From the NCBI GenBank assembly GCA_021162065.1, contig JAGGZK010000049.1:11952-75951 (forward strand): 64,000 nt of DNA, given 5' to 3'. Below the pieces are notes generated by a model. It had not been told where the DNA came from. It did not search any database and saw nothing but the letters and a program-made list of their open reading frames with translations. A program made the translations under genes and the position numbers. Shown here piece after piece: positions 47,725 through 64,000 of this stretch; positions within the stretch are counted from its first letter, which is position 1, and the number at the start of each line of letters is the position of its first letter. Source of the DNA: Thermoplasmata archaeon (GTDB taxonomy: Archaea > Thermoplasmatota > E2 > UBA202 > JdFR-43).

Positions 47725-48762
47725 GTGATAAATATGGGAGTGAAAATTGCTAAAAACAGAGTAAATGAATTCTTGAAATACCTTAAAGAGGAATACATTC
47801 TTTATGCTCCTGTTGAGGAAAACGGTGTTTCAAAAATTTCTAAGATAGAGGATACATCGGACATAATAAATCTTCCATATAGAACACAAATATCTTTAAA
47901 ACCCATATTTTTCCCCCCTGAACAAAAATTTTTCAGGTTTGAGAAAAAAAATGGAGGAGTTGAGATTGAAGACTATCTTCCGCAGGAAGGTGATGATAAG
48001 AGCATAATCTTCGGCGTGCGTGGTTGCGATGTTAATGCTATTGAGGTTCTGGATAAATATATGTTGGATGAATTTGAGGATCCCTACTACAGGAAAAGGC
48101 GGGAGAATGCTATAATTATAGGCATCTCCTGTGACTATCCAAAAGAATCCTGCTTCTGCACCGCCTTCGGAGGAATGGTGCCAGAGAGATATGATCTCTG
48201 GTTTACAGATATTGGCCCCCATTTCTATGTCGATATTGGCAGTAAGAGAGGGGAAAAATTGATTGATGACAAATTTTTTGAGGAGGCATCTGAAGAAGAT
48301 GAAATGAGAAAAATTCGAAGAATAAACTCCGTAGAAACCAAGATAAATCGGAAAGTGAAAACGAATCTACATGATATAAAAAAATATTATCATAAGATAA
48401 AAAACAGGGCTGATGATTCAATATGGGAAGAACTCGGAAGAAAATGTGTCTCCTGTGGAAAATGCAATTTCATATGTCCCACATGCCACTGCTTTGACGT
48501 GAAAGACATGACAAATATTGACGGCAGTGCTGGAGAAAGAATAAGAGTGTGGGACTCATGTCATCTTTATGATTATGCAAAGACCTCTGCAGAGAATTTC
48601 AGAGAGGAGAGAAAAGCAAGGGTGAGATACAGGATATATGATAAATTTGTTTTTCCGGTTATGAGATACGGTGTCTATGCATGCACTGGATGTGGAAGAT
48701 GTAGTGAGGTTTGTCCTGCCGGAATAGATATCCATGCAGTTGTAAGGAGGTTGATAAAATGA
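47725..48762 (+). CDS. hydB: Cytoplasmic NiFe sulfhydrogenase beta subunit (Fe-S)
   Basis: Cys clusters 'CVSCGKCNFICPTCHCFD' and 'CTGCGRCSEVCPAGI'. First gene of the hydBGDA-like run. Alternative start at 47734. Confidence 0.7.
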   Translation: MINMGVKIAKNRVNEFLKYLKEEYILYAPVEENGVSKISKIEDTSDIINLPYRTQISLKPIFFPPEQKFFRFEKKNGGVEIEDYLPQEGDDKSIIFGVRGCDVNAIEVLDKYMLDEFEDPYYRKRRENAIIIGISCDYPKESCFCTAFGGMVPERYDLWFTDIGPHFYVDIGSKRGEKLIDDKFFEEASEEDEMRKIRRINSVETKINRKVKTNLHDIKKYYHKIKNRADDSIWEELGRKCVSCGKCNFICPTCHCFDVKDMTNIDGSAGERIRVWDSCHLYDYAKTSAENFREERKARVRYRIYDKFVFPVMRYGVYACTGCGRCSEVCPAGIDIHAVVRRLIK

Positions 48763-49574
48763 ATAATCCATATCTTCCTGCTGTAGCCAGAATAACTGAT
48801 ATAATAGAGGAAACCCCAGATACAAAAACTTTTGTTATATCATCGCCCCTCAAATTCAAACCCGGACAGTTTGTGGAACTCAGCATTTTTGGATATGGAG
48901 AGGCACCAATATCAATTTCTGGTGGAAATGAAAAAAGTATAGATTTAACAATAAGAGCTGTGGGAAACATTACAAAAAAGATTCACAGGATGAACGTGGG
49001 AGATTATGTTGGAATAAGAGGGCCCTTTGGCAATGGATGGCCCGTAGAAAGGGCGGAGGGAAGGAATCTCCTCATAGCAGCAGGCGGCATAGGTCTGGCA
49101 CCATTAAAGCCCGTAATCGAGTATGTTTGCAACAACAGAAAAAAGTTCAGGAATGTGACATTGCTCTATGGCGCAAGAAAACCCTCTCTGATGCTTTTCA
49201 AATACAAATTAGAGGAATGGTCAAAACACATGGATGTTCTGTTAACAGTGGACGAGCCAGAAGAAGGTTGGAAAGGGAATGTGGGCGTTGTAACAACACT
49301 TTGTGACAGGATAAAACACGTTTCAGATACTGTAACACTGATGTGTGGCCCACCCATAATGATGAAGTACACATCCATTTCCCTTATGGAACTCGGCTTT
49401 CCAACAGGCGAGATGTATCTATCTCTGGAAAGGAATATGAAATGTGGCATAGGAATATGCGGGCATTGCGCCGTCGGCGGCCTGTATGTTTGCAGAGATG
49501 GCCCTGTATTCTCCCTGAATGACGCCCTTAAACTTATTGAAAAGCCGCACGAGGTGCAGGGGGTGATAGATTGA
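48759..49574 (+). CDS. hydG: NiFe sulfhydrogenase gamma subunit (FAD/NAD(P)-binding, 2Fe-2S)
   Basis: FNR-like 'GQFVELS', 'LLIAAGGIGLAPL', and C-terminal 'CGIGICGHCAVGGLYVCRDGPVF'. ATGA overlap with hydB. Confidence 0.75.
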   Translation: MNNPYLPAVARITDIIEETPDTKTFVISSPLKFKPGQFVELSIFGYGEAPISISGGNEKSIDLTIRAVGNITKKIHRMNVGDYVGIRGPFGNGWPVERAEGRNLLIAAGGIGLAPLKPVIEYVCNNRKKFRNVTLLYGARKPSLMLFKYKLEEWSKHMDVLLTVDEPEEGWKGNVGVVTTLCDRIKHVSDTVTLMCGPPIMMKYTSISLMELGFPTGEMYLSLERNMKCGIGICGHCAVGGLYVCRDGPVFSLNDALKLIEKPHEVQGVID

Positions 49575-50317
49575 ATATAGGCATATTTTCTCTTTCATGC
49601 TGCGAGGGTTGCTCTGTGCAATTTCTCAACTTGGAGGCAAAAATTCTTGAAATTCTTAAATACCTAAATATAAAAAATTTCAGGCTCGCCAAAGAGTACA
49701 ACGAGATGCCCGTAGATATAGCCTTTGTGGAAGGAACACCGACAACAAGAGAAGAGGTACTAAAATTACTTACGATACGAAAGGAGAGTAAAATACTGGT
49801 GGCTCTGGGAACATGTGCCGTCACTGGAGGAGTGCCTGGACTGGTAAACATGATGGCCAAAAAGGAAGCCATGGAGGTTTATGATGGTTTTCCTCCAGAT
49901 GTGCCCATAGATCCCAAACCGTTGGAATACTATGTAAATGTGGACTACAACATTTATGGATGCACCTTCTCAAAAGACGAGTTGATTGAACTCATAACCT
50001 CACTTATTATTGGTAAAGAATACCGGGATAAGGAATACAGCGTGTGTGTGGAATGCTCCCTGCGAGAGAATAACTGTCTCCTTGATGATGGCCATCTATG
50101 TTTGGGGCCCATAACAAGGGGCGGCTGCAAGGCACTCTGCCCAAATAATGGAAAAATGTGCCTTGGTTGCCGCGGCCCATATGAGGATGCCAATATCAAG
50201 GGACATATAAAGATTCTTCAGGATATGGGATTCACCAAAGATGAAATAATAGAGAGTCTTTCCCTTTTTTCATATGAAAAATTTAAGGAGGTTATATCAT
50301 GGCTAAAAGAAGAATAA
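49571..50317 (+). CDS. hydD: NiFe hydrogenase small (delta) subunit
   Basis: 'IGIFSLSCCEGCSVQF' proximal-cluster motif, 'GTCAVTGGVPG', 'CVECSLREN', 'CLGCRGP'. Apparent TTG start overlapping the hydG stop. Confidence 0.8.
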   Translation: MNIGIFSLSCCEGCSVQFLNLEAKILEILKYLNIKNFRLAKEYNEMPVDIAFVEGTPTTREEVLKLLTIRKESKILVALGTCAVTGGVPGLVNMMAKKEAMEVYDGFPPDVPIDPKPLEYYVNVDYNIYGCTFSKDELIELITSLIIGKEYRDKEYSVCVECSLRENNCLLDDGHLCLGPITRGGCKALCPNNGKMCLGCRGPYEDANIKGHIKILQDMGFTKDEIIESLSLFSYEKFKEVISWLKEE

Positions 50318-51564
50318 GCATTAAGGAGATAACAAAAATAGAGGGACATGCCAATCTTAGTGTAGAACTGGAAGATGACAAAATCAGGCGTGTGATATTT
50401 GGTGTTCACGAGGGTTCACGATACTTTGAAGCATTTATGAAAGGGAAAAATTACATGTATATCCATGAGCTGGCAGGTAAAGTGTGTGGGATATGCACCG
50501 TAGCCCATGAACTTGCAAGCATAAAAGCTGTAGAAAATGCCTTGGAGATTGAAGTTCCAGAAAATGTAGAGAGAATAAGAGAGATGATGCTCATAAGCTC
50601 CCACATCCAGAGCCACATTCTCCACCTCTACTTTCTTGCCCTCCCTGATTATGTAAATGCCGAGAGTGCAATAGAGATGGCTGAAAGAGATTATGACCTT
50701 GTCAAAAAGGCATTTCGCATAAAGGAGGCGACAAATTACATGACAGCACTGCTTGGGGGAAGGGAAGTGCAACCCTGCACTCTGGTTCCAGGAGGATTCA
50801 GTAAAAGAATAACCAAGGATGTGATAGAAAGATACATAAAAAAAATGAAAGAAATATATCCCCTTCTGGTGGAAACGGCTGAACTGTTTTCATCTCTCGA
50901 ATACCCACACTTCGAAAGAAAGAGCGATTATGTATCGCTTTACGATGGAAAAAGCATACCTCTCTATAATGGAAAAATAAAAACTCTTCATATGGAATTT
51001 GAAGGCGAGGAATATGAAAAGCATTTTGAGGAATATGTGGTGAATTACTCCTCTGCCAAGAGATCGTTAGTTGGAGGGAGGGATTACATGGTGGGCGCCC
51101 TCGCCAGATTGAATATAAATCCATATCTTAGGGAAGAGGCGAAGGATATCGCCCTCTCCTATTCCATTAAATTCCCCAGCGATAGAGTTGCCTGGATAAA
51201 TGTTGCCCAAGCCATAGAGAATGTGCATTACGCCATAGAAGCCATGGAAATAGCAGATAATGTTAAGGAATATGAGCCGATGCACATTTCTCCCAAAAAT
51301 ATTGATGGAGAAGGAATATCTGCTATTGAAGCGCCCAGAGGATTGCTGATTCACCATTACAAATTTAAGAATGGCAAATGCACCTATGCAAATATAATAA
51401 CTCCCACTGCCATGAATACAGAGAACATCGAAAGGAATCTGGAGGAATACCTTAAAGATATTGCAGGAGAAAGTGACGAAGTCATAAAAAAGGAAGCTGA
51501 GAAGATAATACGGGCTTATGACCCCTGTATTTCCTGTTCTGTACATGTGATCAGGACAAAATAG
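50299..51564 (+). CDS. hydA: NiFe hydrogenase large (alpha) subunit, group 3b-like
   Basis: N-terminal 'KIEGHANL', 'AGKVCGICTVAH' (CxxC Ni ligands), and C-terminal 'DPCISCSVHVI' (DPCxxCxxH). Confidence 0.85.
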   Translation: MAKRRISIKEITKIEGHANLSVELEDDKIRRVIFGVHEGSRYFEAFMKGKNYMYIHELAGKVCGICTVAHELASIKAVENALEIEVPENVERIREMMLISSHIQSHILHLYFLALPDYVNAESAIEMAERDYDLVKKAFRIKEATNYMTALLGGREVQPCTLVPGGFSKRITKDVIERYIKKMKEIYPLLVETAELFSSLEYPHFERKSDYVSLYDGKSIPLYNGKIKTLHMEFEGEEYEKHFEEYVVNYSSAKRSLVGGRDYMVGALARLNINPYLREEAKDIALSYSIKFPSDRVAWINVAQAIENVHYAIEAMEIADNVKEYEPMHISPKNIDGEGISAIEAPRGLLIHHYKFKNGKCTYANIITPTAMNTENIERNLEEYLKDIAGESDEVIKKEAEKIIRAYDPCISCSVHVIRTK

Positions 51565-57156: not shown

Positions 57157-57230
57157 GGGCCCGTAGCTTAGCCAGGTGGAGCGCCTGGCTCATAACCAGG
57201 TGGTCGCCGGTTCGAATCCGGCCGGGCCCA
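57157..57230 (+). tRNA. tRNA with anticodon CAU (elongator tRNA-Met, or tRNA-Ile2 if C34 is agmatinylated)
   Basis: Acceptor GGGCCCG/CGGGCCC (G1-C72, so not an initiator), anticodon stem CCTGG/CCAGG with loop CTCATAA, T-arm GCCGG-TTCGAAT-CCGGC, discriminator A. Oligo-T (TTTTTT) immediately 3'. An A/T box 'TTTTTATATT' lies ~25 bp upstream. Confidence 0.85.
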
Positions 57231-57237
57231 TTTTTTA
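57231..57237 (+). terminator. Oligo-T terminator after tRNA-CAU
   Basis: 'TTTTTTA' immediately follows the discriminator base; archaeal RNAP terminates at T-runs. Confidence 0.4.
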
Positions 57238-57309
57238 TGAGTAAGGCCTGTATGAGATACTTATAATTTTAGTGAAAGCAGTTTCCTCTATAAGTTATTT
57301 AAATGATTT

Positions 57310-58890
57310 TCAGTCGAATAATTCTTCAACAGCCATCAGATCAATCTTTATATTATCCTCTAATCTTGCTCGATATGCTTCTTCATATGCCCCTTTAGTA
57401 AAGCTAAACGCCACAATAATCCCTTTCAATATTTTCTTAGTGCTGGGATAATATCTTCTTAAAGCTGTTTCGAAATTATCAACAACATTTCTACCAACAT
57501 TTTCTGATTGTTTTACTTGTATGGGAATACCATCCGAAGTTATACCATCTATCCCCATATCAGCGACCTTTTTGTCGCTGGAAACACCGTTTAATGCCTC
57601 AATGATTCTGTCTTGAAAATCTTGCCAATCCATCTCTTTTAATTTACTTTCTGTTAACACGGCTAACTGGCTAAATTTTTTCTCCTTTAGATCATCCAAC
57701 ACTCTTCTTAATCTCTTGGGATAGGAAAGCATTTTCTCCATTTTTAGTTTTAGATCATCACGCTCACGAGAATATTGCTTTATCCCATAATAACCTCCTC
57801 TTTCTCTAAGTTTCTTAATTTTCTTCATTAAATTATTGATTTGACTTTCTATCTTCTTAATCTCCCTTTCTACACTTGTCAAAAGTTTCCTCACATCCTC
57901 TAAAACTCTAGGGTCTCCTATCTCGCCTAATGCTTCAGCGGCAGCAACTTTTACATCCCAATTTCTATCCTTTAACGCCTCTAAAAGCGGTCTAATCGCT
58001 CTTTTATCATGTGATATTCCTAATTTTAATGCTGCATCCGCACGAATATAATCTTTTTTATTTCCTAACCTAGATATTTCCTTTGTTAAATTAATCTGTC
58101 TCTGCATCATGTGTAAGAGGTTTCTTTTACCATATCTTCTAATTTTATTCCATAAATTATCCCCTAGTCTATCTCTTTGTTTTTTGTCAAGAGTCATACC
58201 ATATATTTTTTTTGATTGAGATATGAACTCCTTCTTCACTTCTTCATCAACATTTGTCCAATCATTTTCATACCTATAAACCAAATATAGCACTTTAAAA
58301 AAATTTTTTTTATTTTGTTCACCAGCCATAAATTTTCCAATTCTCTTTATGACGACTTTTTCTGTGACCTTTTTCCATACTATTTTAGCAAACTTATAAT
58401 CAATTTTTATACCATATGCTCTCTCTAAATGACTTATGAACTCTTCCTCTCCCTGTAAAAAGTTACCGTTACAACTTTCTACAATAGAGAAAAGGGGTTC
58501 GATATTATTATTTTTAATATCACATAAAATTTTTTTCTTAATTCTTTCTCTCTTTTCTTTCCTCTTTTTTTCCTTCTCAATCTTTAATTTTTTCCTTTCC
58601 TTTAGAGTCTCTACAATTTTTTCCCAAGCCCAACGTGCATCGTCAGCATCTATTTTGATGTCCCATCTTTGTTTTATATATTTTTTAAATTTATACTCAA
58701 TATATAGCCCCTGAGTTTCAAATGGCTCTAAAGTTCCTTCCATTACGATCTGTTCAAGATCTCCCCATTTCTTATTCTCTATGTCTTGTTTAAAATTATC
58801 AATCTGCTTTTTTAGTTCTTCTTTTCTTCTTGATCTGGAAAGTAGGCCCATCTTACAATCACCACTTTTGTATACTTTGTAGTATATCAT
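57310..58890 (-). CDS. Fusion protein: N-terminal triplicated ~25-aa module + K/E-rich coiled coil + PBS-lyase HEAT-like repeats + C-terminal Mrr-like PD-(D/E)xK restriction-endonuclease domain; encoded on an AT-rich island
   Basis: HEAT-like 'ADAALKLGISHDKRAIRPLLEALKDRNWDVKVAAAEALGEIGDPRV'. Nuclease core 'VADMGIDGITSDGIPIQVKQSE' (D...D-G...Q-V-K, Mrr_cat-like). The gene is markedly AT-richer than its neighbours and lies directly 3' of a tRNA. Confidence 0.5.
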   Translation of the reverse strand: MIYYKVYKSGDCKMGLLSRSRRKEELKKQIDNFKQDIENKKWGDLEQIVMEGTLEPFETQGLYIEYKFKKYIKQRWDIKIDADDARWAWEKIVETLKERKKLKIEKEKKRKEKRERIKKKILCDIKNNNIEPLFSIVESCNGNFLQGEEEFISHLERAYGIKIDYKFAKIVWKKVTEKVVIKRIGKFMAGEQNKKNFFKVLYLVYRYENDWTNVDEEVKKEFISQSKKIYGMTLDKKQRDRLGDNLWNKIRRYGKRNLLHMMQRQINLTKEISRLGNKKDYIRADAALKLGISHDKRAIRPLLEALKDRNWDVKVAAAEALGEIGDPRVLEDVRKLLTSVEREIKKIESQINNLMKKIKKLRERGGYYGIKQYSRERDDLKLKMEKMLSYPKRLRRVLDDLKEKKFSQLAVLTESKLKEMDWQDFQDRIIEALNGVSSDKKVADMGIDGITSDGIPIQVKQSENVGRNVVDNFETALRRYYPSTKKILKGIIVAFSFTKGAYEEAYRARLEDNIKIDLMAVEELFD

Positions 58891-59082
58891 AACATAATTC
58901 TAATATAAACTCATCGATATATTGTATAAAAACCCTCTCTAAAAAATGTTACTATAGTAAGAGTTTGAATAAAAGACCCACATGAGAATAGGAAAATAAA
59001 CATTTGTATGAGAAGGCAGAGGAAAATTATTCTTATCCATAAAATAAGTCTTAGAGAAAATGCCTCGGACTTTCCCTACTTT

Positions 59083-60285
59083 TCACCCAAATATCACCTT
59101 CTCTGCCTTTTCTGCCACTTTTTCTCTGTACTCTTCGGGGCAGGAAACCATGATGGCCCACTCCGTTATGCCCCTCATCTGAAGGGCGGTGGCCAGTGGC
59201 GTGTAATGGCTGAGAGGATTTATCTCGCTTCCCTCCATCACCTTTATGTCAATCCTCCTTATCCTGGGCTCGGAAAGAAAGATGTCCTTCCCGGGGATAT
59301 CCACTATTATATATTCCTCCGGCACTCCCGTAGCTGCCGAAATCTCCTCCTCCAGCTGTTTCTCATCAGGCAGGGATGCCATCGCCTCCTTTTCCTCTTC
59401 GCTCATCTCCTCCAATCCCATGGCAAAGGCTCTTTTGAACAATCTTCTGTATTTAAGGCGGGAAACCATGTCCCTCTGGTAGCCGCCCATTTCTCTGAGA
59501 TGTGAGAGCAGTTCGCAATCCGTCATGAAGGCAAAATCAAACCTTTCCGCCCTTTCCACCGCCTTTATGAGCATGAGTTCCGCTATCCTCACCGTTTTGT
59601 GGAGATATACGGAGGAATACATCAATGCTCTTGCCACCAGCATGCTTTCAAGTGCACTCACTCCCTTTCTCTCAAAGACGATTTCATCATCGTAAACTTT
59701 CATGGTCTGGATTATTCTGTCCATATCTATAACGCCGTAGGCGACTCCCGTGTAATATGCATCTCTCATGAGATAGTCCATCTGATCCGCATCGAGAGGA
59801 CCATGTATTATCTGCGAAGCAACCTCCTTTTTCCCTTCAAGTATTTCCAAAATTTCCCTCGCATCCATTCCATGTTCAGAAAGAATTTCCTTTATGGTTT
59901 TTCCCCCTTTATAGTCCTCAAGCCTCCTCTCCCCACTTATTATTTCCTTCGTTATCTCCACATGATTTTTTCCCTCCCTGGAATGCATCAGATATTCCAG
60001 AGTGTGGGAAAAGGGTCCGTGGCCTATATCATGAAGAAGAGCAGCAACAGCAACAACATCTTCCTCCATATCCAGAGCATGGGCCATCTCCCGGGCAACG
60101 TGAGACACGCCAAGAGAGTGCTCCATTCTTGTATGATTCGCTCCCGGATAAACAAGATAAGCAAACCCCAGTTGCTTTATCCCATGCAATCTCTGCATCT
60201 CCGGAGATTCGATGAGGTCAACGAATACCCCCTCGAACCTCAGATTTCCGTATATAGAATCCCTGATGTATTTCACATTCTCCAT
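59083..60285 (-). CDS. HD-domain phosphohydrolase (dGTPase/dNTP triphosphohydrolase-like superfamily)
   Basis: 'RMEHSLGVSHVAR....AALLHDIGHGPFSH' is the canonical HD motif. 400 aa. Confidence 0.7.
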   Translation of the reverse strand: MENVKYIRDSIYGNLRFEGVFVDLIESPEMQRLHGIKQLGFAYLVYPGANHTRMEHSLGVSHVAREMAHALDMEEDVVAVAALLHDIGHGPFSHTLEYLMHSREGKNHVEITKEIISGERRLEDYKGGKTIKEILSEHGMDAREILEILEGKKEVASQIIHGPLDADQMDYLMRDAYYTGVAYGVIDMDRIIQTMKVYDDEIVFERKGVSALESMLVARALMYSSVYLHKTVRIAELMLIKAVERAERFDFAFMTDCELLSHLREMGGYQRDMVSRLKYRRLFKRAFAMGLEEMSEEEKEAMASLPDEKQLEEEISAATGVPEEYIIVDIPGKDIFLSEPRIRRIDIKVMEGSEINPLSHYTPLATALQMRGITEWAIMVSCPEEYREKVAEKAEKVIFG

Positions 60286-63200
60286 ATTCCTATCCTTCGC
60301 CTTTTCATAAATATCAGTATGGCAGAGGCAGCCAGAAGTATCATGAGCTCAAATCCGGGCGTCTTCTCCTTCTCTCTCACATTCACCACAAAGGTGAAGG
60401 TGTCCTGCGCCCCATCGTCGTCCACAACCGTGAGAGTCACAGTATACGGCTTCTTTTCACCAAAAGCATGTTTCACCTCCTCTCCATATGCATCTATGAT
60501 GCCATCGCTTTCAAAATCCCAGGAATAATTTTTAATTTCACCATCTGCATCCTTGCTGGCACTGGCATTGAAGGTAACCACCTCATCCTGTCTGGGCTTC
60601 TCAGGCTTGAATGTGAAAAGGGCGGTTGGAGGCTTATTTTTAATCGTAAGCCATACCGACATCACTCCAATATCGTTGTCATCGTCTTTAACGATGAGTT
60701 TCACGGTGTAGTTTCCGTCATCGCCGTATCTATGGGTGGCATTCTCGGTATAGGAGATGTTGCCGTCTCCGAAATCCCATGTATGATTCACGATCTCGCC
60801 ATCCTCATCATAACTGTGGGAAATGAAACTCACATCCTGAATATCCGTAGGCTCCTCAGGTGTCCAGGTGAAATTGGCAACAGGAGGAACATTTCTTATA
60901 AGAATTGCACGGGATGTGCTGGATGTGGAGCCGTCGTTATCCACAACGGTAAGAACAACGGTGTAGATTCCATTCTCAGCATATATGTGCTCGGGATTCT
61001 TTTCATAACTGTAATTTCCATCTCCAAACTGCCAAGATATGTTGACTATCTCGCCATCCGCATCATAGGAGTGGTCCATGAATTTTACAGGCTCAACATC
61101 ATTTGGTTCATCCGGGGTATAATCGAAGAAGGCAGAGGGCGGAACATTCTTTATCTCCATTATCTTTGATATGAAATCTGTGCCCCCATCGTCGTCCTCT
61201 ATGGACAGCCTTACAATATATGTGCCATTATCCGGATATACATGCTTCACCTCCATTCCATAGGCAATGCTCCCGTCTCCAAAGTCCCAGGTGTAGTTAA
61301 CAATCATGCCATCTATATCGTAGGAGGAAGAAGCATTGAACACAATTTCATCAATATCAGTTGGCTCCTCAGGGGTCCAGGTGAAATTGGCAACAGGATT
61401 ATTGTTTTCTATCATTATTCCGTGGGAAATGCTTGCTGTGTCGCCATCATCATCCATAACAGTGAGTGTAATCTCGTAAACTCCATTGTCATCGTAACTG
61501 TGCTTCACCTCCATTCCATAGGCAATGCTCCCGTCTCCAAAGTCCCAGGTGTAATTAACAATAATGCCATCTATATCGTAGGAGGAAGAAGCATTGAAGG
61601 TGACATCCTCCTTTGCCATAATTTCACCCGTTGGCACAGTAAAGGAGGGAGATGGCGGAACATTCAGCACAGTAATCTCTAAAGATAGTTCATCCGTTCC
61701 TCCATCATCATCCATCACAGAAAGTGTAACCATATAGTTTCCATTGTTAGCATAGGTATGCTTCACCTCCATTCCATAGGCAATGCTCCCGTCTCCAAAG
61801 TCCCAGGTGTAGTTAACAATCATGCCATCTATATCGTAGGAGGAAGAAGCATTGAATGTAACTTCTTCAATATCTGTAGGCTTCTCTGGAACCCAAGTGA
61901 AATTGGCAACAGGATAGGTGTTAAGAACCGTTATCTCCTTCTCAATGCTTCCGTTGTTGCCATCGTTATCAAATATGGTGAGGTTTACAATATACACTCC
62001 ATTGTCGGCATAAAAGTGGGTAGGATTCTGCTCATTGCTTGTATTTCCATCTCCAAAGTCCCACTGCCATGCCACAATGGTGCCGTCAAGATCGACGGAG
62101 TTATCATAAAACGAAACGCTCTGGTACGTGTATGGAGTTGTGGGAGCGAAGGAGAAATACGCCACCGGCAATCCCGCCCTTCTTATGAGCGGACGGTAAT
62201 CCATTCCGTAGCCATTTATCCTGTATGGAACATCCCCTATGCCATCCTCATTGAGATCCGTGCCGGAATAATCATCCCAGTAGTTTCCAACACTGTCGTT
62301 CCATACATTTACGGTGTTGTCATACACATGCTCTCCATTCCCCACAAAGTTGTTGAAATGGAAAACATTGTTTGGAGAATACTGCAGGTAAACGCCCCAT
62401 GCGTTGTTCTCAAAATCGCTGTGATGAAATACATTATCGTGGCACTGGAATAGCCAAACACCGTTGACAAAGTTGTTGACTATCCTGCTTCCCTCCACAG
62501 TGTTATTGAAGGCATATCTCATTATCATTCCATTATTGTTTCCATATATCTCACAATCCTTTATTTCCGAAGAAGAGGTGTACTGCATCAGTATGCCCGC
62601 ATAGGAATTGTCGAAAATGCCGCATCCCTCCACCTGGATGTCCATGCCATTGGTTGTGATACCATAATAATTGTTGTAAACACTGCATCCCTCCACCCTC
62701 ACATTGCTTCCTGTAATCTTTATGCCCGCATCATCCCAGGCATTTCTCACATTTAGATTTATCATCTCCACATCATCAGAGTTTATATACACAACCATTT
62801 CCCCATTCCCGTCCAGAATGCTTCCTTCCTCTCCAGTGATAAACATTCTCTTGGATACTATTATATTTTCAACATATGTTCCGTCAAAGATGTGGCATCC
62901 TCCAGCCTCCACCACATTATCTATGGCATTTCCCACGGAAGTGAAATGGTCAAGTCCCCATCCGGGGAATGATGGATCGTATTTCCCATTCACCCATACA
63001 AAAAGGGGCGGATTCTGGACAGGATTCATCAGAGGATATTCATCTATGGCGCCGCCATTTATGAGATATGGCTCGTCACCCATTCCATCCCTGTTGGCGT
63101 CTGTACCATCATAATCCCACCAGTAATTTCCGATGGCATCCTCCCTTAATCCATTCCAGCTGTTGTCGCACTCGTCATAGGAAGGATTGTTCATGAAATT

Positions 63201-64000
63201 GTTGTGGTAGATGCCGTTTCCATTGGAGTTCTGCACAATGCATAATCCATAATTTCCGTTGTTTTCAAAGGTATTGTCGTATATCATATTATCCATGGAG
63301 CCATGGCTTATCTCCATTCCAAAGTAGGAGTTGTTGTGCAATTTGTTGCTCCAGATGCTGGAATGGGAAACATTGAAAAGAAATATGCCCTTCATGCAAT
63401 CGTAGAATTCACTTCCTCCTATGCTGCAGTTCATGGAGTTTATGAGATATGCTCCAAATATGGCATCCGTGGCAGAACAGTTGTAGATGCTTACATTCAT
63501 CGCACCCAACACCTTTATTCCATTCATGTCAGCATATATGGTAAAGCCCTCCACCCTCACATAGCTGGCAAGGATGAATATTCCCTCGCCTGGGGAATCG
63601 ATGACGGCATCCTCTCCAACCAACGTCAACCTCTTTTCGACCACAATCTCCTGGGCATAGTAACCTGGGTAGACATAGCATTCTCCTCCCTCCTGCACCG
63701 CATCTATGGCCATCTGTATCTCATCAAAATGGTCTATACCCCATCCGGGAGTGGTGGAGTCATAGTCATCATCGACCCACACAAACATTGGGGAGGAGGA
63801 TATTTCATACACCAGCGGGCGGTAATCCATGTTGCTCCCCACTGCATAGGACACATCTCCTATGCCGTCCTGGTTGGCGTCTGGAGCAGAGTAATCATCC
63901 CAGTAGTTTCCAACGCTGCTATTCCATATGTTGGCTCCAGTATCGTAGGCATTTATTCCATTTCCTATAAAATTGTTATGATGAATGAGGTTGGCATAGG
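60273..64000 (-). CDS. Very large surface protein (more than 1,200 aa; N-terminus outside window): NosD-like beta-helix repeats + six PKD domains + PGF-CTERM sorting signal
   Basis: The frame stays open to the window edge upstream of the annotated Met. Beta-helix rungs ('NNFMNN...GNYWWDYDGTDANRDGMGDEPY', 'NNFVGN...GNYWDDYSGTDLNEDGIGDVPY'). Six PKD repeats ('VANFTW.PE.PTDI.EV.FNASSSYDIDG.IVNYTWDFGDGS...HTY..NG.Y.V.L...DDDG'). C-terminus '...KTPGFELMILLAASAILIFMKRRRIGIWRM'. Confidence 0.75.
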   Translation of the reverse strand, partial: YANLIHHNNFIGNGINAYDTGANIWNSSVGNYWDDYSAPDANQDGIGDVSYAVGSNMDYRPLVYEISSSPMFVWVDDDYDSTTPGWGIDHFDEIQMAIDAVQEGGECYVYPGYYAQEIVVEKRLTLVGEDAVIDSPGEGIFILASYVRVEGFTIYADMNGIKVLGAMNVSIYNCSATDAIFGAYLINSMNCSIGGSEFYDCMKGIFLFNVSHSSIWSNKLHNNSYFGMEISHGSMDNMIYDNTFENNGNYGLCIVQNSNGNGIYHNNFMNNPSYDECDNSWNGLREDAIGNYWWDYDGTDANRDGMGDEPYLINGGAIDEYPLMNPVQNPPLFVWVNGKYDPSFPGWGLDHFTSVGNAIDNVVEAGGCHIFDGTYVENIIVSKRMFITGEEGSILDGNGEMVVYINSDDVEMINLNVRNAWDDAGIKITGSNVRVEGCSVYNNYYGITTNGMDIQVEGCGIFDNSYAGILMQYTSSSEIKDCEIYGNNNGMIMRYAFNNTVEGSRIVNNFVNGVWLFQCHDNVFHHSDFENNAWGVYLQYSPNNVFHFNNFVGNGEHVYDNTVNVWNDSVGNYWDDYSGTDLNEDGIGDVPYRINGYGMDYRPLIRRAGLPVAYFSFAPTTPYTYQSVSFYDNSVDLDGTIVAWQWDFGDGNTSNEQNPTHFYADNGVYIVNLTIFDNDGNNGSIEKEITVLNTYPVANFTWVPEKPTDIEEVTFNASSSYDIDGMIVNYTWDFGDGSIAYGMEVKHTYANNGNYMVTLSVMDDDGGTDELSLEITVLNVPPSPSFTVPTGEIMAKEDVTFNASSSYDIDGIIVNYTWDFGDGSIAYGMEVKHSYDDNGVYEITLTVMDDDGDTASISHGIMIENNNPVANFTWTPEEPTDIDEIVFNASSSYDIDGMIVNYTWDFGDGSIAYGMEVKHVYPDNGTYIVRLSIEDDDGGTDFISKIMEIKNVPPSAFFDYTPDEPNDVEPVKFMDHSYDADGEIVNISWQFGDGNYSYEKNPEHIYAENGIYTVVLTVVDNDGSTSSTSRAILIRNVPPVANFTWTPEEPTDIQDVSFISHSYDEDGEIVNHTWDFGDGNISYTENATHRYGDDGNYTVKLIVKDDDNDIGVMSVWLTIKNKPPTALFTFKPEKPRQDEVVTFNASASKDADGEIKNYSWDFESDGIIDAYGEEVKHAFGEKKPYTVTLTVVDDDGAQDTFTFVVNVREKEKTPGFELMILLAASAILIFMKRRRIGIWRM
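61243..62020. repeat. Three near-identical ~260-bp tandem DNA repeats inside the PKD-domain gene
   Basis: The string 'CTTCACCTCCATTCCATAGGCAATGCTCCCGTCTCCAAAGTCCCAGGTGTA(G/A)TTAACAAT(C/A)ATGCCATCTATATCGTAGGAGGAAGAAGCATTGAA' recurs at ~61243, ~61503 and ~61763 (period 260). Confidence 0.75.

Follow-up and report, generated by a model that had tools for sequence, protein, structure and literature searches.

An Mrr-type nuclease domain joined to a triplicated helical module and HEAT repeats in an uncultured Thermoplasmata archaeon

The Pfam catalytic domain Mrr_cat (PF04471) is carried by EcoKMrr, the type IV, methyl-directed enzyme of Escherichia coli K-12, for which D203A is a published catalytic mutant and which is regulated by its oligomeric state (PMC5435990). 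The same domain forms the C-terminus of a set of DNA methylases (PF01555+PF04471 fusions) which carry source names such as 'DNA modification methylase' and, in one case, 'restriction endonuclease', and for which we found no specific description in the literature. PBS-lyase-type HEAT repeats are known from MTH187 (PDB 1te4) and from the designed alphaRep proteins, where they form stand-alone solenoids. Here we describe a gene at positions 57310-58890, on the minus strand, of a 64-kb stretch of a 'Thermoplasmata archaeon' metagenome-assembled genome (MAG), the whole of this stretch being referred to below as the window. In its product, a predicted Mrr-type nuclease domain is preceded by three copies of a helical module and by two HEAT repeats. 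The public protein record, MCD6481640.1, is named 'HEAT repeat domain-containing protein' and says nothing more.

Archaeal defence and conflict systems are much less charted than those of bacteria, and searches based on genomic islands miss solitary genes. We tentatively read the protein as a self-contained sensor and nuclease, accessory to its host and laterally transferred, that may act in defence or in genetic conflict, and our confidence in this reading lies a little below even. The points in its favour are an intact active site, kinship with methylase fusions, an asymmetry of conservation between the N- and C-terminal parts, variable N-termini, mobile status and rarity. What is new here is the combination of an Mrr-type nuclease with a new candidate sensor scaffold, while the Mrr-type domain itself is known. 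A first-pass annotation of the window had already remarked that the combination matched no described system, and this stands: neither the literature nor PADLOC yields one, no description of a HEAT+Mrr system or of the helical module was found in the literature, and the public name is uninformative.

Domain architecture of the protein

The C-terminal 115 amino acids (aa 412-526; 57313-57657, minus strand) are predicted to form an Mrr-type PD-(D/E)xK domain with a complete D...QxK catalytic set, much as had been proposed on first inspection. In a Pfam scan of the full-length protein the Mrr_cat match was missed and only the isolated domain scored, the C-terminal 122 aa giving E 1.5e-7 and 31.9 bits, where the cut-off is 21; Mrr_cat was also matched by 22 of the 22 domain relatives tested, with a best E of 7.8e-10. 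The catalytic motif DMGIDGITSDGIPIQVK, located in the translation at 57511-57561 (minus strand), contains residues D444, D448, Q458 and K460, which do not vary among 32 sequences from archaea and bacteria. When aligned with hhalign, at a modest probability of 60% and with a single EcoKMrr sequence, D448, Q458 and K460 fall on EcoKMrr D203, Q219 and K221, GDMGIDG pairing with GDGGID203G and QVK with Q219-A-K221. Taking the profile match and the catalytic motif together, we assign the protein to the Mrr_cat domain family.

An AlphaFold2 model built from a 32-sequence alignment (mean predicted local distance difference test score, pLDDT, 90; predicted template modelling score 0.65) is all-helical to residue 432 and then passes into a mixed alpha/beta C-terminal domain. 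The latter shows the order alpha-beta-beta-beta-alpha-beta-alpha-beta, with helices (H) and strands (E) at H422-432, E435-437, E449-451, E456-459, H467-480, E488-494, H499-512 and E514-520, a predicted order compatible with the alpha-beta-beta-beta-alpha-beta core of such nucleases. A Foldseek search with the full-length model returned mostly alphaRep matches to the HEAT region and a single nuclease structure, NucS (2vld_B), with a probability of 0.98 but an E of 0.24; the C-terminal domain, compared with the PDB by sequence and by profile, yielded nothing usable.

An alternative is that the Mrr_cat fold serves here, and possibly in the methylase fusions too, as a non-cleaving module for DNA binding or oligomerisation, the protein being a DNA-associated scaffold or regulator which perhaps pairs by way of its near-identical C-terminal domain with methylase-Mrr_cat proteins and modulates them. 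The 50-60% identity maintained across unrelated fusion partners, the whole GRNVVDNFETALRR helix included, would fit an interaction surface, and the regulation of EcoKMrr by oligomeric state is in keeping with such a role. Moreover, Q426 occupies the position of the EcoKMrr helix-1 glutamate E172, which is E in the short-form relatives, and four of the 22 domain relatives also weakly match the 'inactive REase' model NA-iREase1. Inactive restriction endonuclease domains, however, normally lose their catalytic residues, whereas D448, Q458 and K460 are invariant in all 32 sequences; the VGR...F..A helix motif is present in active EcoKMrr too, and no methylase-fusion gene occurs in the window. On balance we regard a non-cleaving role as unlikely.

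The N-terminal part of the model contains three homologous helical modules of about 65 aa each, at aa 27-97 (58600-58812), aa 119-182 (58345-58536) and aa 186-256 (58123-58335), all on the minus strand and, for the first copy, with helices of pLDDT >90. They were compared with hhalign using sub-alignments of each copy taken from eight homologs, and gave probabilities of 96% for copies 1 and 2 (E 1.8e-9), 91% for copies 1 and 3 (E 1.4e-7) and 99% for copies 2 and 3 (E 8.4e-17). The triplication originally noted is therefore present, with three copies supported at 91-99%, although the unit had been given as about 25 aa and the strings quoted for it are the C-terminal third of each module. An alignment of 22 modules yields the common pattern K..DI.N...L..V....G.(F/W)....F...L...YG..I....A...W..I, with a shared hydrophobic and aromatic core in which F and W are invariant. 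A BLASTP self-comparison of the N-terminus, as a single sequence, did not detect the repeat and profile comparison was needed. One homolog, P0008, is without module copy 2.

The module is previously undescribed and specific to its own family. The N-terminal 271 aa gave zero Pfam matches other than noise at E up to 10, Foldseek searches of PDB and BFVD with the three-module model returned noise alone (best E about 0.8-1), and a module profile search of 1.84 billion cluster representatives recovered seven clusters only, all of them in the same family. Some members differ in what accompanies the module: P0121, the only functional lead to come out of the profile search, carries two modules and an unrelated C-terminus made up of a beta-rich segment and a glycine-rich hydrophobic stretch, without a Pfam match, and in P0009 a zinc ribbon and an unassigned domain come first.

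Between the first two modules, an E/K/R-rich linker helix (aa 98-118; 58537-58599, minus strand) lies within one continuous helix, H82-126. It had been taken for a coiled coil. Residues 96-122 are indeed 78% E/K/R, but the best heptad a/d occupancy is 0.38, by a crude register count with no dedicated predictor, and the length of the linker differs between homologs; the segment is probably a charged single alpha-helix spacer. A second coiled coil suggested at the same time fares better, the long helix at aa 327-364, which runs from the HEAT region into the following connector, having an a/d occupancy of 1.00. This connector (aa 338-411; 57658-57879, minus strand) comprises helices H327-364, H367-387 and H389-411, varies in length and sequence between homologs and is a candidate dimerisation or packing element.

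The HEAT region, also recognised at the outset, consists of only two PBS-lyase-type repeats and a capping helix (aa 268-337; 57880-58089, minus strand), defined from Pfam and structure matches. Over aa 274-342 it scores above the cut-offs for both HEAT_2 (E 1.1e-11, 45.3 bits, cut-off 27.7) and HEAT_PBS (E 1.7e-8, 34.6 bits, cut-off 20.9), and in the model the helices are paired as 280-293/296-305 and 311-324/327 onwards. There are strong structure matches to alphaRep and MTH187, and alphaRep structures are retrieved by Foldseek as well.

The open reading frame (ORF) is present on the minus strand as first described, at 57310-58890 with a product of 526 aa and with every motif quoted for it inside. 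Both the mechanical ORF and the public annotation run to 58890. Translation probably starts at M14, at 58851, giving a likely coding sequence of 513 aa at 57310-58851 (minus strand), since homologs begin MGLLS or MGLFS, residues 1-13 are the sole long segment of the model with pLDDT <50, and the M14 ATG is preceded, at a distance of 6 nt, by a GGTGAT motif. This Shine-Dalgarno-like motif (58858-58863, minus strand) and a TATA-like sequence, TTTATATTA, at 58901-58909 were read from the sequence and are putative signals.

Relatives and their distribution

The long architecture recurs in only about a dozen proteins, which are 39-58% identical, and among these the C-terminal domain is 73-90% identical and the N-terminal scaffold 28-47%. 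In short-form relatives a zinc ribbon stands where the long form has its modules, and the core of HEAT repeats, linker and nuclease is kept. The N-termini that occur on this constant core include the triplicated module, the zinc ribbon, a multi-pass membrane or PLDc_N-like segment and a zinc-ribbon/PH-like one. The multi-pass membrane N-terminus was seen in P0005 and P0125, two further carriers of the helical module, with a weak PLDc_N match.

Leaving the methylases aside, the family amounts to about 25 clusters among 5.8 billion proteins, and every member that could be assigned to a genome belongs to the Thermoplasmata. Among 185,579 species genomes four family loci were found, all in Thermoplasmata or Thermoplasmatales MAGs, and a scan of JGI metagenomes added two loci, both on short contigs; the family is thus both rare and patchily distributed. 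One copy, P0006 (745 aa, on an ENA contig of 2593 bp), has a nuclease domain which is cut off after ...ETALRRYYQDSDKKLLEG and gives way to unrelated sequence with the DDE transposase domains PF01609 and PF13751, so that the copy was probably disrupted by an insertion sequence.

The nearest relatives of the nuclease domain are found outside the family, where solitary beta-class N4/N6 DNA methylases of about 400 aa carry them at the C-terminus. Hundreds of these PF01555+PF04471 proteins, from both archaea and bacteria, show 50-60% identity to the domain. One of them, at loci L024 (6001-7227) and L025 (1536-2762), was encountered within an F-type ATP synthase operon, where the methylase gene sits between the OSCP/delta and alpha subunit genes, with GIY-YIG and HicB-like genes nearby and a GC content at third codon positions (GC3) below that of most neighbours. 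This methylase looks like a selfish insertion.

The kinship raises the question of whether the protein belongs to a conventional restriction-modification system, as its restriction subunit, with the methylase encoded elsewhere in the genome; Thermoplasmata do encode such methylases (P0144), and the closest domains are methylase-fused. No methylase gene, however, is present in the window, where tblastn searches with two fusion methylases match the C-terminal domain region only, or beside any homolog. The nuclease domain is also near-invariant and the protein has no recognisable DNA sequence-recognition domain, and we judge this explanation very improbable.

A single-gene islet that differs between strains

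The gene stands alone in a low-GC islet of 1.85 kb (57231-59083) with sharp bounds, GC being 0.27-0.37 inside and 0.45-0.53 in the flanks. At one edge, 80 nt past the stop codon of the gene, lies a tRNA-Met (CAT) gene at 57157-57230 on the plus strand (ARAGORN; Rfam tRNA, 70.3 bits). The gene itself has a GC content of 0.32 and a GC3 of 0.28, and the surrounding and housekeeping genes have a GC3 of 0.47-0.61. Homologs from low-GC Thermoplasmata, on contigs of 33-37% GC, are close in composition to their hosts, so that the copy in the window looks acquired from such a lineage. That the low GC merely reflects a K/E-rich amino acid composition was considered and rejected, because GC3 is low too and the homologs of low-GC hosts match those hosts.

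The strongest evidence for non-resident status comes from comparing strains at the other edge, where a breakpoint (59083/59084) falls within the stop codon of the HD-domain gene that lies upstream. Over the HD gene, as far as 59084, contigs of sister strains show 99.2-99.9% identity, and from there they follow two alleles. Past the breakpoint these read GGGTGGTAA... versus GGGTGAAAAG..., L027 and L030 differing from the window and L028 and L029 having the window allele, and the HD protein ends in …IFG* or …IFGW* according to the allele. The allele of L027 and L030 is unrelated sequence opening a different ORF (MSELMVEIMAVV…), whereas that of L028 and L029 runs into the islet. All of the sister-strain contigs stop 0-196 nt from the breakpoint, each of the metagenome contigs being broken at this locus, and the alternative allele beyond this was not recovered.

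Given its foreign composition, its variability between strains and its position in a single-gene islet beside a tRNA gene, the gene is accessory and laterally transferred in its host genome and is not a housekeeping gene. A separate observation concerns the N-terminal half at about 58197-58890, which encodes the three modules and was spanned by no independent assembly (ENA ERZ23499206, JGI 3300017593; L031, L032, L028, L029), contigs that approach from one side stopping at about 58197 and those from the opposite side at 58887-58952. The gap could stem from microdiversity among strains in the putative sensor region, or from low coverage of DNA with 27-30% GC.

The neighbours of the gene in the window encode an HD phosphohydrolase, PKD/NosD surface proteins, C25 peptidases and a sulfhydrogenase operon. 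The homolog loci lie among genes for malic enzyme, ThiI, glycine cleavage, ThrRS, succinyl-CoA ligase and a ribosomal-protein/SecY cluster; their neighbours are metabolic, translation or surface-protein genes, with none in common. An all-against-all search for partner genes at nine loci found none conserved, other than a weak similarity between helix-turn-helix (HTH) proteins near two short-form genes. The two HTH proteins, at L008 (378-929, minus strand) and L009 (1989-2720, plus strand), share 24% identity (E 2e-11), give faint HTH_7/HTH_23-type matches and could be transposase or resolvase-like DNA-binding proteins.

With homolog loci scattered among unrelated housekeeping genes and lacking a common neighbour, there is no defence island. 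The first-pass annotation had looked to such islands for the homologs and had named housekeeping surroundings beforehand as refuting its proposal, and the long-form loci do all lie among housekeeping genes. We consider that test too strict, since the gene is here foreign in composition, strain-variable and alone in an islet beside a tRNA gene. The same surroundings might suggest a housekeeping factor of the Thermoplasmata, active in DNA repair, recombination or chromatin, the more so as metabolic and translation genes surround every locus and the fold is common to archaeal repair nucleases such as NucS. Such a factor is hard to reconcile with the rarity of the family, with the lack of synteny between homolog loci, with the foreign composition and strain differences seen here and with a copy disrupted by a transposon, and we find it decidedly improbable.

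These features of the locus bear also on the possibility that the gene encodes a mobile nuclease or toxin, homing-like or addiction-like, which is purely selfish and persists by lateral spread without benefit to the host. A foreign gene, alone in an islet with a tRNA gene at one edge and, at the other, a breakpoint that coincides precisely with a stop codon, would be expected of such an element, as would the solitary insertion of kindred methylase fusions, one of them within the ATP synthase operon with GIY-YIG and HicB genes close by, and the destruction of one copy by an insertion sequence. Nevertheless, the islet shows no intein, intron, target-site signature or repeats, there is no antitoxin-like partner ORF, and full-length copies of native composition in low-GC Thermoplasmata suggest long-term retention. 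Pure selfishness therefore seems to us distinctly unlikely.

Two other features of the window may be mentioned. Between 40000 and 52000, a region which includes 47725-51564, GC is 0.40-0.42, below the 0.47-0.49 of the first 38 kb, and four sulfhydrogenase-type genes (Fer4, NAD-binding, Oxidored_q6 and NiFeSe hydrogenase) have a GC3 of 0.35-0.42, as against 0.54-0.61 for IleRS, GDH and CitF; they may constitute a second, older acquired block. Immediately upstream of the HD gene, 60273-63854 (minus strand) encodes a NosD/beta-helix surface protein of 1193 aa with seven PKD domains, and the 3' end of this gene shares 13 nt with the start of the HD gene. Its PKD-coding units (repeats around 61242-61915) are about 92% identical to each other in DNA and, given that the sister-strain versions are longer (1440 and 1526 aa), PKD repeat number varies between strains.

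Proposed function and comparison with known systems

Since the nuclease domain is near-invariant across two fusion contexts, it can be seen as a non-sequence-specific cleavage module whose targeting is borrowed from the fusion partner. In the protein described here the helical scaffold of about 400 residues would bind a trigger or target, which might be a protein or nucleic acid of an invader or modified DNA. This fast-evolving scaffold would gate or position the nuclease and hold cleavage in check until then, and for cleavage the protein would probably have to dimerise by way of the heptad helices, as Mrr and FokI-type enzymes do; PD-(D/E)xK enzymes usually need to dimerise in order to cleave duplex DNA. 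Because no methylase is linked to the gene, and an always-on cutter of unmodified DNA would be toxic, the activity would have to be conditional, as in abortive infection, or modification-dependent, as in type IV restriction. An abortive-infection, defence or type-IV-like role is thus plausible and is our best reading of the protein.

Several results weigh against this proposal. No defence-gene neighbourhood or conserved partner was present in the window or at nine homolog loci (L001-L004, L006, L008, L009, L013 and L014), a small sample with short contigs. Neither an integrase nor att-like direct or inverted repeats bounding the islet were found, the only matches being short, AT-rich and due to chance; a scan of IMG/VR viral contigs recovered zero relatives, and tblastn with the C-terminal domain against plasmid and phage records gave zero matches. 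PADLOC-DB v2 returned no system match, only HEAT-ARM_XIII (E 2.7e-5) within the HEAT region at aa 282-378. To these must be added the substituted helix-1 glutamate and the NA-iREase1 matches described above. The case for defence rests on the accessory and mobile behaviour of the gene and not on island context.

A bolder version, which we find rather improbable, is that the protein represents an unrecognised archaeal single-protein immune sensor, in which a new helical fold, in two or three copies, would detect a protein or nucleic acid of viral origin and then free the Mrr-type module. The hundreds of methylase-Mrr_cat proteins would then be an undescribed single-chain restriction-modification class, and the HEAT proteins would have arisen by a swap of methylase for sensor.

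If the protein proves to be an active, gated nuclease, the known single-protein immune effectors would gain a new sensor fold, a protein known publicly by its HEAT repeats would receive a function, and attention would be drawn to a large number of unstudied methylase-nuclease fusions with the same cleavage module. The locus also shows clearly, in an uncultured Thermoplasmata population, how a gene is gained at the level of strains at a hotspot flanked by a tRNA gene. We rate the importance as moderate, the family being tiny and restricted to one lineage, with no bearing on a long-standing open question.

Among known proteins, the methylase-Mrr_cat fusions (about 390-460 aa) are the closest in the nuclease domain, the identity extending over about 110 aa and including the stretches DMGIDG, PIQVKQS, VGRNVVDNFETA(L/I)RR and GIIVAFSF; helix 1 differs, reading DWQDFQD in the window protein and F(D/E)FQNWV in the fusions. 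Like the gene described here they are solitary and have housekeeping surroundings. The window protein, in contrast, has no methyltransferase domain (PF01555 or other, with no match) and is consequently not a restriction-modification fusion; it carries instead a helical N-terminus of HEAT repeats and the new module.

The short forms (P0010-P0014, P0126-P0132 and L014; 270-342 aa) are 35-48% identical to the window protein over the HEAT-linker-nuclease core; they have a CxxC...CxxC zinc ribbon and no triplicated module, and in P0012 and P0014 the HEAT region is degenerate. For the HEAT part itself, aa 272-345 align repeat for repeat with MTH187 and alphaRep, at up to 43% identity, two repeats being embedded here in a nuclease fusion where those proteins are stand-alone solenoids.

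EcoKMrr shares with the window protein the Pfam catalytic domain, the aligned D...QxK residues and the VGR...F..A helix, and both are single polypeptides without a methylase. They differ in the spacer from D to QxK, of 10 residues in the window protein and 16 in EcoKMrr, and their N-terminal architectures are unrelated, the Mrr_N winged-helix DNA-binding domain of EcoKMrr being absent here, so that the window protein is not an EcoKMrr-type enzyme. In its proposed mode of working it would be most like a stand-alone Mrr-type (type IV) nuclease or an abortive-infection nuclease.

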